This document shows, in pieces, positions 10,067-63,998 of a stretch of DNA of 64,000 bases. Made by a program: the position numbers and the translations under genes. A model generated the notes under the pieces. That model saw nothing but the letters and a program-made list of their open reading frames with translations, searched no databases and was not told the DNA's origin. The stretch lies in assembly GCF_058153355.1 (NCBI RefSeq), contig NZ_CM177019.1; one strand, written 5' to 3'. The first letter of the stretch is position 1, and every line of letters begins with the position of its first letter.

Positions 10067-10327
10067 TTACTGACGAGGATGCTTCAATAACTTCTTTACA
10101 TAATCGCGCAGCAGCTCCGTATCGTCGTCAGGAATGCTGGCATCGGGCTTTACCTCGTAAAGTGCCCCCTCTACCTGATCAATCAACCGCTGTTGGTCAT
10201 TTTGCGCCATATTACGAAGCATTGCAGTGACGATAATCTCCAGTGCTTCTACCTGCGCGCACAGTTCTTTCGACTCTTCTTCTTTTTGGGCAAGCTTAAA
10301 TAACAACTCAGCAATGAGATTTTTCAT
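10067..10327 (-). CDS. iraP: Anti-adaptor protein IraP
   Basis: 86-aa [25 protein letters not shown]..., recognised IraP (YaiB). Confidence 0.9.
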
Positions 10328-10789
10328 GTCTGTATTTCCTTATCCAAAGTATGGAGAAGTTAACATTATGCTTCACAACTTCATAGTGTCTGGAGGTAGT
10401 ATTTTTATGACGAATGAAATACTTTGCGCAAATATTTTTTCCATATTTATCAGCGAAACGTTTCTCTTATTTAAATAAGTAACCATACAAAGTATAGGTT
10501 TTTAATTATCAACCTTTATTATAAGTAAAAGTTATGAAATATATTCTCTTTGCTAACTTATAATTAAGAGAAAAAAACTCACTGCATGGCCATTTAAACC
10601 AGGAATAAATTAGCTTCCCGTTCATCATTTTTGTGATCTTGCGCACATCTTTGAGATAACGCACTTTCTTCACCAGTACGTTGCACACTTTGTCAGTAGA
10701 AGATTGCAACATTCTGTCAGAAGGCCGCGAATCCCCCGTTTTGTCGTGGTAATGTATGCACTTTGTGTTAGACGGGATAGGTTTTCAAG

Positions 10790-11884
10790 ATGGAAAAACT
10801 GCGGGTAGGAATCGTTTTTGGTGGTAAATCAGCGGAACATGAAGTGTCTTTGCAATCGGCAAAAAACATTGTCGATGCCATTGATAAAAGTCGCTTCGAC
10901 GTTGTGCTGCTGGGCATTGATAAACAAGGGCAATGGCACGTCAGCGATGCCAACAATTATCTGCTAAATGCAGACGATCCTGCCCATATTGCGTTGCGCC
11001 CTTCGGCGACCAGTCTTGCGCAGGTGCCTGGTAAACATGAGCATCAGCTTATCGACGCGCAAAACGGTCAGCCATTGCCGACGGTGGATGTCATTTTCCC
11101 GATTGTTCACGGTACGCTAGGCGAAGATGGTTCCTTGCAGGGAATGCTGCGGGTCGCCAATTTACCGTTTGTGGGTTCTGATGTTCTGGCGTCAGCAGCC
11201 TGTATGGATAAAGATGTCACCAAACGTCTGCTACGCGATGCCGGGCTGAACATTGCGCCATTTATTACCCTGACACGCACCAATCGTCAAAACATCAGTT
11301 TTGCCGAAGTGAAGTCAAAACTGGGGTTACCGCTGTTTGTAAAACCCGCTAACCAAGGCTCTTCTGTTGGTGTCAGCAAAGTAACCAGTGAAGAAGAGTA
11401 CGCAATTGCCGTCGATCTGGCGTTCGAGTTCGATCATAAAGTGATCGTTGAGCAAGGGATCAAAGGTCGTGAGATCGAATGCGCGGTTCTGGGCAACGAC
11501 AATCCGCAAGCCAGCACCTGTGGCGAGATCGTACTAACCAGCGATTTTTATGCCTACGACACCAAGTACATTGACGAAGATGGCGCGAAAGTGGTAGTTC
11601 CGGCAGCCATTGCGCCAGAAATCAACGATAAGATCCGGGCGATTGCCGTTCAGGCTTATCAGACGTTGGGATGCGCAGGCATGGCGCGTGTAGACGTGTT
11701 TTTAACCCCAGAGAACGAAGTGGTGATCAACGAGATCAACACACTGCCAGGCTTCACCAACATCAGTATGTATCCGAAGCTGTGGCAAGCCAGCGGTTTG
11801 GGTTACACCGACCTGATCACACGTCTGATCGAGTTGGCGCTGGAGCGTCACGCTGCGGATAACGCATTGAAAACCACAATGTAA
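10790..11884 (+). CDS. ddlA: D-alanine--D-alanine ligase A
   Basis: 364-aa [27 protein letters not shown]..., ATP-grasp Ddl signature. Confidence 0.95.
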
Positions 11885-16740: not shown

Positions 16741-17427
<687 letters not shown>

Positions 17428-17449: not shown

Positions 17450-20338
<2,889 letters not shown>

Positions 20339-20863
20339 TTGTCATCCCTCCTCAGGGACGTAATAAGTTGATCCATCAATTATCAATGCATAGAAAACAT
20401 ATTATGTTTCGCGTTTACGATTATGCGGCGTTATAGAGGAATGGTTCAATTATTCTTTCCCCTAAGTCCGATTGCGGACATATATAAAGCACGTGAACAC
20501 ACATAAAGAAATAAATAACAAAAACACATTATTTCAATAGGTTAATGAAAGCGCCAATTTTAAAACATAGACCATAAAAATATAAAAACACCAAACCAGA
20601 CAAATAATGTATCAATAAGCAATGAACTTTACGTTATTCACTTTTTGAAAACGTCACCAAATCCCCAAAAACAATAATCTATAGCTATAAATAAAAATTA
20701 AAAATATTTTCAATGAATATAAATTTATTGCTATTTCTATTACAAAGATGTCCTGACCTCTCATTCATTCTCTTCTTATCAACATCACGACAACTTTCGT
20801 AAAACATCCCCACCCTGCTTCAGGTATACTATGCCCCTCGATTCCACAAACATCAGGCAGACC

Positions 20864-21838
20864 ATGACAGACCTAATCCAACGCCCTCGTCGCCTGCGCA
20901 AATCTCCTGCGCTGCGCGCTATGTTTGAAGAGACAACACTTAGCCTTAACGACCTGGTGTTGCCGATCTTTGTTGAAGAAGAAATTGACGACTACAAAGC
21001 CGTTGAAGCCATGCCAGGCGTGATGCGCATTCCAGAAAAACATCTGGCACGCGAAATTGAACGTATCGCCAACGCCGGTATTCGTTCCGTGATGACTTTC
21101 GGCATCTCTCACCATACCGATGAAACCGGCAGCGATGCCTGGCGGGAAGATGGTCTGGTGGCGCGTATGTCGCGCATCTGCAAGCAGACCGTGCCAGAAA
21201 TGATCGTCATGTCAGACACCTGTTTCTGTGAATACACTTCTCACGGTCACTGCGGTGTGCTGTGTGAGCATGGCGTGGACAACGACGCGACCCTGGAAAA
21301 TTTAGGCAAGCAGGCCGTGGTTGCAGCTGCTGCAGGTGCAGACTTCATCGCCCCTTCCGCCGCAATGGATGGCCAGGTACAAGCGATTCGCCAGGCGCTG
21401 GACGCTGCGGGCTTTAAAGATACGGCGATCATGTCGTATTCGACCAAGTTCGCCTCTTCCTTTTATGGTCCGTTCCGTGAAGCTGCCGGAAGCGCATTAA
21501 AAGGCGACCGCAAAAGCTATCAGATGAACCCAATGAACCGTCGTGAGGCGATTCGTGAGTCACTGCTGGATGAAGCCCAGGGCGCGGACTGTCTGATGGT
21601 TAAACCAGCTGGAGCGTACCTCGACATCGTGCGTGAGCTGCGTGAGCGTACTGAATTGCCGATTGGTGCGTATCAGGTGAGCGGTGAGTACGCGATGATT
21701 AAGTTCGCTGCGCTGGCGGGTGCTATAGATGAAGAGAAAGTGGTGCTCGAAAGTTTAGGTTCGATTAAGCGTGCGGGTGCGGATCTGATTTTCAGCTACT
21801 TTGCGCTGGATTTGGCTGAGAAGAAGATTCTGCGTTAA
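20864..21838 (+). CDS. hemB: Porphobilinogen synthase (delta-aminolevulinate dehydratase)
   Basis: ORF 20831..21838; 324-aa product from [24 protein letters not shown]... Confidence 0.95.
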
Positions 21839-21877
21839 TGATCATTATGCCGGGTTATCCAACCCGGCATTTCCCCC

Positions 21878-22729
21878 TTACCCCGCCCGATAAAACGGTT
21901 TATCCCCAAGGATCGTCGCCCGATGCATAATCCGCCGCTGTGGCAGGTAATCCGCATTGGCATAGTGCTGAGTCACGCGGTTATCCCAAATCGCGATATC
22001 ATTTGGCTGCCAGCGCCAACGTACCTGAAACTCCGGTTTGGTGATATGGGCAAACAAAAAACCTAACAAGGCTTCGCTCTCTTTCTCGCTGACATCAACA
22101 ATTCGCGTAGTAAAGCCTTCATTCACAAACAGCGCCTGTTTACCGCTCACCGGATGCGTTCGCACCACCGGATGTAGCAACGGCGGATTTTTCGCGACCG
22201 CCTCGCGCCAGCGTTGATGCTCCTCCTCCGTTTTGCGGTATTTGTATTCCGGGAACGATTTACGGAAATCATGCTCCGCACGCAGCCCGCTCAACAGCTG
22301 GCGGAAGGGAACAGAGAGCGCCTCATAGGCCGCAATGCCGCTGGTCCAGAGCGTATCGCCGCCAGTCGAGGGTAACTCTTTCGCCGCCAGAATCGCCCCT
22401 GCGGGTGGCGTTTCAATAAATGTCACATCGGTGTGCCAGTTATCGTTATCCGGCGGATTATCGTTATGAGTATCCAGTACGATGATCTCCTCAACCCCTT
22501 CGGCATGAGGGTAAACAGGATGAATATGCAGTTCGCCAAAACGCTGGGCCAGCGCGCGTTGCTGCTGCGGTGTAATGGCTTGTTCACGCACAAATACCAC
22601 CTGATGGCGCAGTACCGCATGGTAAAGCTGTTCAAACTGATTATCGCTTAACGGACGCGTCAGGTCGGCACCCGAAATTTGTGCACCGATATACGGCCCC
22701 AGCGGGGTAATGCTCAGACGTTCACTCAT
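21878..22729 (-). CDS. tauD: Taurine dioxygenase (alpha-ketoglutarate dependent)
   Basis: 283-aa [23 protein letters not shown]... Confidence 0.95.
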
Positions 22730-23553
22730 TGTACTTCTCCATGCCAGGGCGTCAGGCGGCGCTGTAACGCGCGCAGACCCAGTTCTAAAAGAAAGGCGAT
22801 AATCGCAATCACCGCGATCCCCGCCAGCACCACGTCAGTCGCGAGAAATTCACCCGCTGACTGGACCATAAAACCCAAACCGCGCGTCGCGGCAATCAAC
22901 TCCGCCGCCACCAGGGTAGACCAGCCCACACCCAGACCAATGCGTAATCCGGTGAGGATTTCCGGCAGCGCACCGGGCAAAATAACAAACCACAGTACCT
23001 GTGTGCGGCTGGCCCCCAGCGACTGAGCGGCACGAATGCGAACCTGCTGCGCGCTTTTCACCCCCGCCAGCGCCGACATCGCCACCGGCGCAAAAATCGC
23101 TAAATAGATCAGTAAGATCTTCGAGGTTTCGCCAATACCAAACCAGATCACCATCAGCGGCAAATAAGCCAGCGGCGGCACCGGACGATAAAGCTCGATT
23201 ATCGGATCCAGAATGCCGCGCACCGTCGGGCTTAGCCCCATGGCGATCCCGACCGGAATACCGATCAACACCGCCGCGAGTAGCGCCAGCACAATGCGCG
23301 TCAGGCTGGCTGCCAGATGTTGCCACAGGGTGGCGTCCATAAATCCTTGAGGTCCGGCAATAGTGAGCAGTTTTGCCATTACCTGTTGCGGCGGCGGCAG
23401 AAACAGCGGGCTAATCAGTTGCAGCGCCGCCACCGCCCACCATACCGTGAGTAAAACCGCTAACGTGCCAATGCTTAAGGTCACCTGACGCGAGAGCGGC
23501 CAGCGCCATTTCAGCCGATGCGAATGCAGTTTTTCATTAATGAGCACACTCAT
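22726..23553 (-). CDS. tauC: Taurine ABC transporter permease
   Basis: 275-aa membrane ORF; 4-bp overlap with tauD start. Confidence 0.9.
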
Positions 23554-24317
23554 GAGAACGCCTCCCGTTGCTCAAATACGCGGCTTAAAACATATTCGCG
23601 CATGGCGATGAATTGTGGATCGGACTTGATGCTGCGGCTCGGTTCCCCGGCAACAAAGCGGCGGGCGAAGTTGAGCGGCAGGCGTTCCAGCACGCGGCCT
23701 GGGCCGGGTGAAAGCAGAACCAGTTCAGTCGCCATAAACACCGCTTCTTCTATATCGTGGGTAATCAACAGCACCTGCTTGCCCGTCTCCTGCCAGAGTT
23801 TCAGCAGCAGGGTTTGCATCTGGTCGCGGGTGAAGGCGTCCAGCGCGCCAAACGGTTCGTCGAGTAATAACAGCTGGGGATTTGCCGCCAGCGCGCGGGC
23901 AATCCCTACCCGCTGACGTTGACCGCCGGAAAGCTGCCAGATATAGCGTTTTTCTGCGCCTTCTAGCCCCACTTTTTTCAGCATCTGGTGCGCGATTTCC
24001 AGGCGCTGTACTTTCTCTACACCTGCCAGTTGCAGGCCGAATGCCACGTTGTCTACCACATTACGCCACGGCAACAGCCCTTCATTCTGAAAAACCACGC
24101 CCCGCTCTGCGCCCGGTCCCTCAATGCACTTACCCGCCAGTTGAATGCTGCCATGCTGATAAGGCACAAAACCGGCAATCAGATTCAGCAAGGTGGTTTT
24201 GCCGCAGCCAGACGGTCCCAGAACCACCAGAAGCTCGCCGCTTTCCAGCGTCAGGTTGATATCTTCCAACGCCGGTTTGCCGCCATAATCGGCGTAAAGA
24301 TGAGAGATTTGCAGCAT
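23550..24317 (-). CDS. tauB: Taurine ABC transporter ATP-binding protein
   Basis: 255-aa ORF with Walker [10 protein letters not shown] and LSGGQRQR signature; 4-bp overlap with tauC. Confidence 0.9.
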
Positions 24318-24329
24318 CTGCGCCTCCTT

Positions 24330-25292
24330 TTATTGCACGAAGCGCGAGGTCACGTACTGGCTGTAATCATTCGCCACGGCAGGGACTTTGCCCTGATCTT
24401 TCAAAAACTGCGCGGTATCGATGATCGCTTTGTTCACCGGTCCGGTCAGTTCTGCCGTTTGCTGCTGCGGTGTCAGATAGGTATTCCCCTTCACAAGCCC
24501 CGGAACGTCACCTTCCGGCACACCGCTTAAACGCGCCAGTTTGCTGATGTTTTCCGGCTGTTTCAGCCACGCGTCTGGGTTAGCAATGTACGGTTGCTGA
24601 GCATCGATGGCGCTTTTAGCGAACGCTTTCACGACTTCAGGATGTTTCTCGGCAAAATCTTTCCGCACGACCCAGACGTCCAGTGTCGGCGCGCCCCACT
24701 GCCCGACCTGTTCAGAATCGGTCAGCACCTTGCCATCTTTTTCCAGGGCGTTAACCGCCGGTGCCCAGACATAAGCACCATCAATGTCTCCCCGCTGCCA
24801 GGCGGCGATAATCGCAGGCGGCTGCAGGTTCACAATCTCCACTTGCCCGGGTTTAATGCCCCAGTGTTTCAGCGCCGCCAGCAAGCTGTAATGCGTGGTG
24901 GAGATAAACGGTACGGCAATGCGTTTGCCAATCAGATCTTCGGGTTTGCTGATGGTTTTCTTCACCACCAGCGCTTCGGAGTTACCCAGTTTTGACGCCA
25001 GCAAGAAGACTTCAATCGGCACCTGTTGGCTGGCTGCAACCGCTAATGGGCTGGAACCGAGGTTGCCGATTTGCACGTCGCCAGAAGCCAGTGCCCGCAC
25101 GATGCTGGCCCCGCTGTCAAACTTACGCCAGTCCACGGTCGCCCCGCTCTCTTTAGCAAAGGTGTTATCGGCCTGAGCCACTTTCGCCGGTTCAGCGGAG
25201 GTTTGATAGGCCACGGTGACGTTCACCGCCTGTGCCTGAAAAGCGATGAATGCCAGTGCGGCAAGAAGTGTGTTACGCGATGAAATTGCCAT
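24330..25292 (-). CDS. tauA: Taurine-binding periplasmic protein
   Basis: 320-aa ORF with signal peptide; first gene of the tau operon. Confidence 0.9.
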   Translation of the reverse strand: MAISSRNTLLAALAFIAFQAQAVNVTVAYQTSAEPAKVAQADNTFAKESGATVDWRKFDSGASIVRALASGDVQIGNLGSSPLAVAASQQVPIEVFLLASKLGNSEALVVKKTISKPEDLIGKRIAVPFISTTHYSLLAALKHWGIKPGQVEIVNLQPPAIIAAWQRGDIDGAYVWAPAVNALEKDGKVLTDSEQVGQWGAPTLDVWVVRKDFAEKHPEVVKAFAKSAIDAQQPYIANPDAWLKQPENISKLARLSGVPEGDVPGLVKGNTYLTPQQQTAELTGPVNKAIIDTAQFLKDQGKVPAVANDYSQYVTSRFVQ

Positions 25293-61890: not shown

Positions 61891-62706
61891 CTAAAGAGTG
61901 TAGCGGATTTTAACGTGCTTATTTACAGGATAATATCTGTCACCTAATTCCTGCACTCTATTAGATACCCATTGATTTAATCGTGCATCATCTCTGTATG
62001 TTTTCACGTTCAGAACGGAGAGCAATAACATCACTAGCGATTTAGGAAAAACAGGGTAAATATTTTTTAAGTGCAATAATAATTCATACGCAAGCGCCTG
62101 CTTAATAGGTGCGTCTGCGTCCGGAATGCGCGACATTTCGCGAAGCCATTTTTCTACATGCTCACATTCTTTCCCTTCACGGAAAAGTCTCAACAAAGGC
62201 ATATGGTGCTCAAGAAGAATGCATTTGCAATCTGTTCGTACTGAATCGATAAACTGCACTAATTTCTTAAGTCCGGTGAAGCGTCCGGCATGGATATTCT
62301 CTTTAATATCAAGAAACACGTCATCCTGATCATATACCCAAACGGTCCCTTTTTGATTTTCAAGTATCCGAAAAACAAACTTAATCGGGTAATCAGGGTA
62401 ATCCACCCAGTCATAAACTCCAGGGAAATCATTAAACTGCACATTTATGGTAAGCGCATTGTCGGCTGCCCACTCGCAATCTCGTACGGCAGCCATGAGA
62501 TAAATGAGTTTATCATCATCGACTAAATCATCACGACAATCATAAGGATAATCATAGTATTGTTTAATCAAAACCTTGAATATATCGACACAAGAAACCA
62601 GTGTACTTCTGATATCTTCAGGTAACTGATTGTTTTTAACCGTATTGTGTACGCTTTGTTTCGTATATAGCAACAAGTTATTGTGCGGAGCTTTTAATGA
62701 TATCAT
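61891..62706 (-). CDS. yahL: Uncharacterised protein YahL
   Basis: 271-aa ORF MISLKAPHNNLLLYTKQSVHNTV...; AT-rich. Confidence 0.8.
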   Translation of the reverse strand: MISLKAPHNNLLLYTKQSVHNTVKNNQLPEDIRSTLVSCVDIFKVLIKQYYDYPYDCRDDLVDDDKLIYLMAAVRDCEWAADNALTINVQFNDFPGVYDWVDYPDYPIKFVFRILENQKGTVWVYDQDDVFLDIKENIHAGRFTGLKKLVQFIDSVRTDCKCILLEHHMPLLRLFREGKECEHVEKWLREMSRIPDADAPIKQALAYELLLHLKNIYPVFPKSLVMLLLSVLNVKTYRDDARLNQWVSNRVQELGDRYYPVNKHVKIRYTL

Positions 62707-62948
62707 CGCGATCTCTCTTAAATAAAAATAAACGTCGCAGATAATAAAGCCCTGATTAAACCAGGCACTATCAGAAATCGCTCATAACTAACGAGTGAAG
62801 TATTGTGTACTGGAGGGAGTTATTTTAACAATTTGAATTTACGTTATAGGCTTTACCGCTACTTTGATATTATTTCGCTCTCCTTAACTAAAAAGTTAAG
62901 TGGAGAGCGAAGTTAATATGTTAAACCACAGGGTATTTATTAATTGTT

Positions 62949-63998
62949 TCAGTCTGTTAGTGTGCGATTATCGATAACAAAACGATATTTCACATCTCCT
63001 CGCAGCATTCGCTCATAGGCTTCATTAATTTGATCGGCCCGAATCATCTCTATATCAGCCACGATGCCATGTTCGGCGCAAAAATCGAGCATCTCCTGTG
63101 TTTCTGGAATGCCGCCAATCATAGAACCGGCTATCGCACGGCGTTTCATGATCAGGTTGAAAACTTCCGGCGATTTATGCGGTGTCGCAGGCGCACCAAC
63201 CAGGGTCATGGTGCCATCGCGCTTCAGCAAGGTGGTAAAATCATCGAGATTATGTGGCGCAGCTACGGTATTCAAAATGAAATCGAAACTCTTCACATGA
63301 GCCGCCATCTCATCGGCATTGCGCGAGTTAACAACTTCATCGGCCCCAAGGGCTTTTGCCGCTTCGCGTTTTGACTCAGACGTGGTAAACGCCACTACAT
63401 GCGCCCCCATCGCGTGGGCCAGCTTTATCCCCATATGCCCCAGACCGCCAATGCCGACCACTCCCACTTTTTTACCCGGCCCGGCCTGCCAGTGACGTAG
63501 CGGCGAGTATGTGGTGATCCCTGCACACAACAAAGGAGCCACCGCCGCCAGCTGCTCTTGCGGGTGACGAATACGCAGAACATATCGCTCATGAACGACG
63601 ATCTGTTGTGAGTAGCCGCCCAGAGTATGGCCCGGTTCGTCCGGCGTCGGCGAGTTATAGGTGCCGGTCATGTGATCACAGTAGTTTTCCAGCCCGTCTT
63701 CACACTCTTCGCAATGTTTACAGCTGTCGACAATGCAGCCGACACCGACCAAATCGCCCGGTGCATGTTTTTTTACCTGATCACCAACGGCTACCACGCG
63801 CCCCACAATTTCATGGCCCGGCACGCAGGGATAAACCGTCCCCGCCCACTCGGAACGCACCTGGTGAATATCGGAATGGCACACGCCACAGTAAGCGATT
63901 TCGATTTTGACATCATGCGGTCCCGGTTCACGCCGGGTGATATCCATCGGTTCAAGTGGTTGTTTAGCGGAATATGCACCAACAGCTTTGATCTTCAT
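62949..63998 (-). CDS. yahK: NADPH-dependent aldehyde reductase (zinc ADH family)
   Basis: 349-aa ORF MKIKAVGAYSAKQPLEPMDITRREPGP... with GVCHSD and GHEIVG zinc-ADH motifs. Confidence 0.9.
   Translation of the reverse strand: MKIKAVGAYSAKQPLEPMDITRREPGPHDVKIEIAYCGVCHSDIHQVRSEWAGTVYPCVPGHEIVGRVVAVGDQVKKHAPGDLVGVGCIVDSCKHCEECEDGLENYCDHMTGTYNSPTPDEPGHTLGGYSQQIVVHERYVLRIRHPQEQLAAVAPLLCAGITTYSPLRHWQAGPGKKVGVVGIGGLGHMGIKLAHAMGAHVVAFTTSESKREAAKALGADEVVNSRNADEMAAHVKSFDFILNTVAAPHNLDDFTTLLKRDGTMTLVGAPATPHKSPEVFNLIMKRRAIAGSMIGGIPETQEMLDFCAEHGIVADIEMIRADQINEAYERMLRGDVKYRFVIDNRTLTD

Follow-up and report, generated by a model that had tools for sequence, protein, structure and literature searches.

A probable shared control region of hemB and a putatively H-NS-silenced autotransporter adhesin gene, with a conserved predicted promoter and leader at its adhesin end

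Overview

The 525-bp gap between hemB and a divergently transcribed autotransporter gene probably acts as a back-to-back control region shared by the 2 genes, in which the hemB promoter and an H-NS-silenced adhesin promoter are arranged in 3 parts. We identified these parts in a 64-kb stretch of DNA (64,000 nucleotides, hereafter the window) by aligning the gap across 19 genomes from 5 genera, namely Escherichia, Citrobacter, Salmonella, Pseudocitrobacter, and Superficieibacter. The right part (20786-20863) holds a housekeeping sigma-70 promoter for hemB, with the -10 hexamer TATACT, a weak -35, a start site at 20837, and a 27-nt leader. The left part (20339-20480) holds the autotransporter module, comprising a predicted TTGAAC-N18-CATAAT promoter, an upstream palindrome, and a leader of approximately 75 nt with the ribosome-binding site partly enclosed in a stable hairpin. 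H-NS would most likely occupy the middle (approximately 305 bp, 75% AT) together with the AT-rich 5' start of the autotransporter gene, where it would shut down the adhesin promoter in laboratory growth and leave the hemB promoter, with its normal GC, active.

Locus organization and composition of the gap

17450-20338, minus strand: intact autotransporter adhesin gene, 962 aa (from the ORF list, Pfam/NCBIfam domains, and synteny)
20339-20863, no strand: the whole AT-rich divergent intergenic region, 525 bp, 32.8% GC, with no feature annotated in relatives
20864-21838, plus strand: hemB, porphobilinogen synthase, 324 aa (ALAD domain, E = 1.7e-136; NCBIfam porphobilinogen synthase)

An earlier note on this DNA had described 20339-20863 as a divergent interval between the autotransporter gene and hemB that is very AT-rich and free of ORFs of 60 aa or more, and our analysis agrees on each point, the edges of the 525-bp gap being the start codons of the 2 genes. 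The ORF at 17450-20338 encodes a Pfam Autotransporter beta-domain (E = 1.6e-46), an NCBIfam autotransporter barrel, and an autochaperone domain, and judged by its sequence and place it is the positional orthologue of EhaB/UpaC/YaiT/SeaB. Its counterpart in K-12 is yaiT, a pseudogene split by IS3, the O157 annotation calls it ehaB, and the Salmonella counterpart beside hemB is yaiU/seaB; EhaB and UpaC are 2 names for one autotransporter (PMC8281228). The order tauABCD-hemB-autotransporter-iprA-ampH is common to K-12, CFT073, Salmonella, Pseudocitrobacter, Superficieibacter, and E. albertii, and in every genus compared the gene 3' of the autotransporter is iprA (16744-17409 in the window), the product of which is a putative CRP/FNR-like DNA-binding protein.

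The autotransporter gene is a mosaic, with barrel DNA 98-99% identical to K-12 and CFT073 and a passenger at 66-75%. The best protein cluster was 96% identical and the second (86%) came from a Citrobacter, and by these protein matches the passenger is a rare allele. In a search of the 7-kb segment against 5,426 complete E. coli genomes, the top match reached 94.3%, and the window seems, from sequence identity, to belong either to a divergent Escherichia lineage or to an unusual recombinant. Within 17450-24500 of the window, hemB, tauD, and tauC were likewise 94-97% identical to K-12 and CFT073, and no higher.

With 32.8% GC against 51.4% for the window, the gap is the lowest-GC 525-bp stretch, and the 525-bp segments with GC that low (0.3%) every one overlap the hemB-autotransporter locus. 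AT content is 67% in the gap overall and 75% in its middle, the GC of the left, middle, and right segments being 39%, 25%, and 50%, respectively; 13 A/T runs of at least 4 nt were counted, and TpA steps occur at twice the density of the window. The other 2 lowest-GC stretches of the window were located at approximately 10200-10800 and 62480-63000, at about 34% GC.

The largest ORFs in the gap span 46, 42, and 36 aa, and none of these had a Pfam match or conservation among the orthologues. Small coding ORFs were rejected as an account of the gap, as a 1-nt indel between Escherichia and Citrobacter/Salmonella shifts the frame of both the 46-aa plus-strand ORF and the leader uORF. A repeat or mobile element was rejected as well, the matches in the gap being low-complexity AT only. 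No feature is annotated in the gap in K-12 (where it measures 523 bp, at 389728-390250 of U00096.3), Sakai, or the best-matching RefSeq E. coli genomes.

Conservation across 5 genera

The left block of 142 bp (20339-20480) was nearly invariant across the 19-genome alignment, and the right block of 78 bp (20786-20863), which includes the hemB promoter and leader, was conserved. Between them lies a segment of opposite character:

20481-20785, no strand: hypervariable AT-rich spacer, 305 bp, 25% GC, in which identity to the window is 28-45% for other genera and 72-93% for alleles within E. coli

This middle segment was unalignable between genera, and even the K-12, CFT073, and Sakai alleles were 20-28% divergent. 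Compared with S. enterica, the window was 98% identical over the 54-nt core of the autotransporter leader, 54.5% identical at hemB third codon positions, and 35% identical over the gap middle. The invariance of the left block reflects selection and not recent transfer, because divergence is of the usual degree in the barrel domain and in the adjoining signal-peptide codons. Constraint on the non-coding leader is far above that on synonymous sites nearby, a sign of regulation in addition to H-NS.

Several bulk properties of the middle were retained in the orthologues. The length of the gap was 487-572 bp in all of them except one Citrobacter, and the GC of the middle was 21-29%, or 31% in the Citrobacter with an insertion. 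All 19 orthologues share an excess of A over T and of C over G on the hemB-sense strand despite saturating sequence change; in the window, the GC skew of this strand of the spacer was -0.40, the most extreme in the 64 kb, and the AT skew was +0.22. An RNA read from the spacer in the hemB sense would be richer in C than in G and unstructured, resembling a Rho-loading site. The one exception in length was Citrobacter sp. Res13-Sevr-PEB04-36 (L011:255-940), with a gap of 626 bp owing to an insertion of approximately 125 bp. The inserted sequence, GTGACTGGGGTGAGCG ... CTTGAAGTATGACGGGTAT, resembles an ERIC/IRU repeat.

The hemB promoter

20790-20806, plus strand: conserved block ACAACTTTCGTAAAACA, -47 to -31 of the hemB promoter (orthologue alignment)
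20825-20830, plus strand: hemB -10 hexamer TATACT, 5/6 of the consensus (conservation and mapped start site)
20837-20863, plus strand: hemB start site at 20837 and 27-nt leader with ribosome-binding site (Kim et al. 2012; leader conserved)

The earlier note had placed the hemB promoter at the right edge of the gap, naming TATACT as a -10-like hexamer, and both conservation and the mapped K-12 start site support it. TATACT was invariant in Escherichia, Citrobacter, and Salmonella, with variable flanks. In K-12, the hemB start site was mapped at 388978 on the minus strand with 39 reads, a 27-nt leader, and an upstream sequence ending in ...GGTATACTATGCCCC (Kim et al. 2012, PLoS Genet, supplementary TSS table). 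The equivalent position in the window is 20837, 7 nt past TATACT, and the -10 assignment is therefore right: a hexamer close to TATAAT is found at the 6-8 nt before the start that a sigma-70 promoter would have. The same cannot be said of the -35, for which the best candidate was AAAACA (18-bp spacing, 3/6 matches) and the consensus scan gave no call.

Across the right block, the order of elements was ACAACTTTCGTAAAACA, approximately 14 variable nt, GGTATACT, approximately 9 variable nt, and the invariant TCGATTCCACAAACATCAGGCAGACCATG. Because the -35 (AAAACA) is weak, the block ACAACTTTCGTAAAACA may be an activator site that substitutes for a good -35. Matched by hand, the upstream block at 20786-20806 agreed with the marbox consensus at 11 of 14 specified positions, and a SoxS ChIP-seq peak without an identified motif has been reported in the Salmonella gap between hemB and yaiU (PMC10268841); we regard the likeness of the block to a SoxS/marbox site as a weak lead.

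An ATG at 20831, directly after TATACT, opens a 335-aa ORF in the frame of hemB, the real start being 33 nt further on at 20864. Its position ahead of the mapped start site, together with its replacement by ACG or GTG in relatives, makes this ATG a possible trap for gene-calling programs. An imperfect inverted repeat, ATTACAAAGATGTC (20739-20752) and GACAACTTTCGTAA (20789-20802), also brackets the region upstream of hemB; its right arm (20789-20802) falls within the block conserved in all genera, and its left arm is kept in Escherichia only. The fold signal of the minus strand at 20740-20839 (z = -2.7 to -3.6) is explained by this imperfect repeat flanking the upstream block, kept in Escherichia only.

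The predicted autotransporter promoter and mRNA leader

20466-20479, no strand: palindrome GTCCG-N4-CGGAC, with arms kept and centre variable in all genera
20444-20449, minus strand: predicted -35 TTGAAC, within the invariant block AAAGAATAATTGAACC (consensus scan; conservation)
20420-20425, minus strand: predicted -10 CATAAT (consensus scan; conservation)
20339-20413, minus strand: predicted 5' leader of the autotransporter mRNA, approximately 75 nt, with a nearly invariant core of 54 nt at 20339-20392 (conservation)
20394-20410, minus strand: A/U-rich inverted repeat GAAACAU-AAU-AUGUUUU near the predicted 5' end (predicted; weak, about -3.4 kcal/mol)
20368-20379, minus strand: short hairpin UUGA-UGGA-UCAA with GGA in the loop (minimum-energy fold; nearly invariant)
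20343-20360, minus strand: hairpin CGUCCCU-GAGG-AGGGAUG over the 3' half of the ribosome-binding site (predicted fold)

The putative promoter TTGAAC-N18-CATAAT matches 9 of 12 consensus positions, and both of its hexamers were invariant in the 19 sequences from 5 genera, separated by an 18-nt spacer that is fixed in length and free in sequence. It thereby has the conserved hexamers 16-18 bp apart and the variable spacer by which a sigma-70 promoter can be recognized, and such a fixed-length, free-sequence spacer between invariant hexamers is, as an alignment pattern, the classic promoter footprint. The transcript is predicted to start near 20413. Among plus-strand entries of the K-12 Cappable-seq data, no yaiT-sense start site was listed between 388394 and 389570, which fits a silenced promoter. 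Weak sense-strand Cappable-seq sites were present inside the AT-rich 5' part of yaiT, at 389570, 389852, and 390159 of U00096.2, and are typical of spurious initiation in AT-rich genes.

Upstream of the promoter, the palindrome is centred approximately 59.5 bp from the predicted start, at a fixed distance from the -35 and in one copy per locus, and its conservation pattern marks it as a likely binding site for some factor. Its 5+4+5 geometry is that of FNR-type sites. Autoregulation of IprA through the palindrome was rejected, as no second copy was found upstream of iprA, elsewhere in the window, or in any locus.

Counted from the predicted start, the leader is 70-79 nt long across all taxa, and a 1-nt indel between genera shifts every frame in it, so the leader is non-coding. 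The hairpin that covers the 3' half of the ribosome-binding site did not vary among the 19 orthologues and has a predicted energy of -9.8 kcal/mol at 37 C, -11.0 at 30 C, and -8.9 at 42 C. An RNA thermometer melting at approximately 30-42 C was rejected, since the hairpin is predicted to remain closed at 45 C with AGGG 99% paired. The second hairpin, UUGA-UGGA-UCAA, includes the sole GATC of the gap. Because the leader sequence is invariant, its folds come without covariation, and the rare substitutions, followed by hand, break and do not compensate a predicted long-range pairing with the AUG. The A/U-rich inverted repeat lies 3-4 nt from the predicted 5' end and recurs, with another spacer or sequence, in Salmonella and Pseudocitrobacter; as an element of the leader it is weak and only suggestive.

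CsrA-controlled leaders carry 2 or more GGA motifs 10-63 nt apart, of which one sits in the loop of a hairpin and another covers the ribosome-binding site. The autotransporter leader, as predicted, has this arrangement, with the UGGA loop at 20372-20375 and AGGGAUG at 20343-20349 separated by approximately 23 nt, and by this sequence criterion it resembles a CsrA target. That the leader might be common to paralogues was rejected, as 2 paralogous autotransporters (approximately 36% identity) located away from hemB had none of the leader motifs.

H-NS and the AT-rich middle

The earlier note had also proposed that the gap is a curved, H-NS-bound silencer of the autotransporter promoter. The H-NS half of this proposal gains support by analogy from experiments on 2 orthologues, UpaC and Salmonella yaiU, and the curvature half is not supported, the predicted curvature being at chance level (see below). 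The hemB-adjacent gene of CFT073 is, from locus order, presumably UpaC (c0478). Transcription of upaC in CFT073, the subject of Allsopp et al. 2012 (Infect Immun 80:321), is reported to be repressed by H-NS, and UpaC appears in a list of uropathogenic E. coli autotransporters under H-NS repression (PMC5012682, which cites Allsopp 2012). The yaiU promoter of S. Typhimurium was bound by H-NS in EMSA and ITC (Kd 0.29-0.46 uM), with occupancy by ChIP-qPCR, and the same study calls yaiU a previously reported H-NS-repressed gene and describes relief of the H-NS repression by c-di-GMP (PMC10657408).

In AT content, which exceeds the genome average by a wide margin for several hundred bp, and in TpA density, the gap fits an H-NS substrate. 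The high-affinity H-NS nucleation motif TCGATAAATT was not clearly present: it was found with 2 mismatches 3 times in the 525 bp against approximately 0.8 expected at the window's mean density, an excess explained by AT-richness, and no match with 0 or 1 mismatch was present. By analogy with the orthologues, the middle (20481-20785) is the probable H-NS binding platform, and we infer that the gap of the window would be occupied as well.

Alternative explanations

Two readings of the middle compete with a compositional H-NS platform. Silencing by intrinsically curved DNA from phased A-tracts, in line with the curved silencer of the earlier note, could appeal to the 13 A/T runs of at least 4 nt and to one predicted curvature peak near 20580 that is just over the 99th percentile of the window. 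We calculated curvature with our own implementation and parameter set of the wedge model, and the profile and the AA/TT phasing were no higher than in shuffled sequences: mean predicted curvature was 7.9 deg per turn vs 6.9 for the window, 12% of 525-bp segments were equally curved, the observed mean or maximum was reached by 58-63% of composition-matched shuffles, and AA/TT power at the 10-11.5 bp period was below that of 98.8% of shuffles. Phased curvature is hence an improbable basis for the silencing. Somewhat less improbable, though still unlikely, is that the middle is functionless, a neutral spacer or remnant carried along with a horizontally exchanged autotransporter allele, and that regulation resides wholly in the conserved ends. 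The absence of sequence conservation in 20481-20785 favours this reading, and the deep haplotypes of the gap in E. coli parallel the mosaic passenger (66-75% nucleotide identity vs 98-99% for the barrel). Neutral DNA in such genomes is, however, expected to shrink and to drift toward 50% GC, and instead 19 orthologues of 5 genera kept the length, a GC as low as 21-31%, and the bias toward A over T and C over G; moreover, H-NS binding has been measured on the orthologous Salmonella promoter fragment (PMC10657408).

An independent, unannotated small RNA gene, for which the earlier note considered the gap a candidate location, found no support in Rfam, terminator, fold, conservation, or K-12 start-site data, and we consider its presence highly improbable. 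What speaks for such a gene is that 525 bp is long for an E. coli intergenic region, that 4 of the 5 promoter-like matches in a scan of 20100-21100 fell within the gap, and that the hemB-sense RNA had fold z-scores of -2.8 (20440-20539) and -2.7 (20500-20599). Those promoter-like sites are nevertheless at chance frequency (5 vs 3.7 +/- 2.1 in shuffles), no Rfam family matched the gap even at E <= 10, no terminator-like site was found in it, and the RefSeq annotation of the gap is empty. The middle, in turn, lacks conservation between genera and diverges by 20-28% among the K-12, CFT073, and Sakai alleles; its hemB-sense RNA folds weakly, at -5 to -9 kcal/mol per 100 nt, with minus-strand segments at -7 to -16. 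Among K-12 start sites, that of hemB is the only minus-strand entry from 384474 to 392203 in the Kim et al. 2012 table, and the plus-strand entries of Cappable-seq include none from 388394 to 389570.

A possible cis-regulatory module

The shared control region that we favor accounts for the hemB promoter and for silencing of the adhesin, and the left block may contain more. It is possible, but on balance doubtful, that 20339-20480 is a cis-regulatory module not described before, confined to the EhaB/UpaC/SeaB orthologues next to hemB and almost invariant in at least 5 enterobacterial genera. In such a module, the 54-nt leader core, with its half-buried ribosome-binding site and GGA motifs, would add control of translation or mRNA stability atop H-NS via some factor, candidates being a small RNA and an RNA-binding protein such as CsrA. 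The palindrome at about -59.5 would serve as the site of a dedicated transcription factor, for which our guess is IprA. The kept length of the spacer and its A/C-rich hemB-sense strand could insulate the essential hemB promoter, for example by Rho-dependent termination.

For the EhaB/UpaC/SeaB adhesins, considered as a vaccine antigen, the finer map offers a precise and testable promoter and leader. The lead most worth following is the conserved promoter-leader module of the adhesin, plus the unexplained constraint on the length and strand composition of the spacer.

Comparison with known systems

The gap is of an already known kind, a housekeeping promoter together with a silenced adhesin promoter, both of which have been studied in close relatives. 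Its leader, as predicted, shares with structured or CsrA-bound leaders of the pgaA type a hairpin over part of the ribosome-binding site, a GGA loop, and an AGGGAUG overlapping the ribosome-binding site, and with the 5'-terminal stabilising hairpin of the ompA type a small inverted repeat close to the putative 5' end. The leader is invariant and so shows no covariation, and the likeness is to the consensus of those features only.

The closest relative is the upaC region of CFT073, which has the same arrangement of hemB, divergent autotransporter, and iprA, with a gap 95% identical and a 142-bp left block 100% identical to those of the window, whereas its passenger is 995 aa vs 962 aa here and approximately 67% identical at the nucleotide level. 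Salmonella yaiU (seaB) also stands beside hemB, behind a gap of 512 bp and 35% GC with the same conserved left and right blocks; its gap middle, in contrast, is unalignable with that of the window (35% identity), and relief by c-di-GMP is a Salmonella observation. UpaH, UpaG/EhaG, and the F9 fimbriae also have an AT-rich upstream region and are adhesins whose silence in laboratory culture is lifted by hns mutation (PMC5012682), as is probably the case for the autotransporter described here. Those adhesins mostly belong to accessory or island DNA, whereas the autotransporter next to hemB occupies a core syntenic site in five genera, abutting an essential housekeeping promoter.
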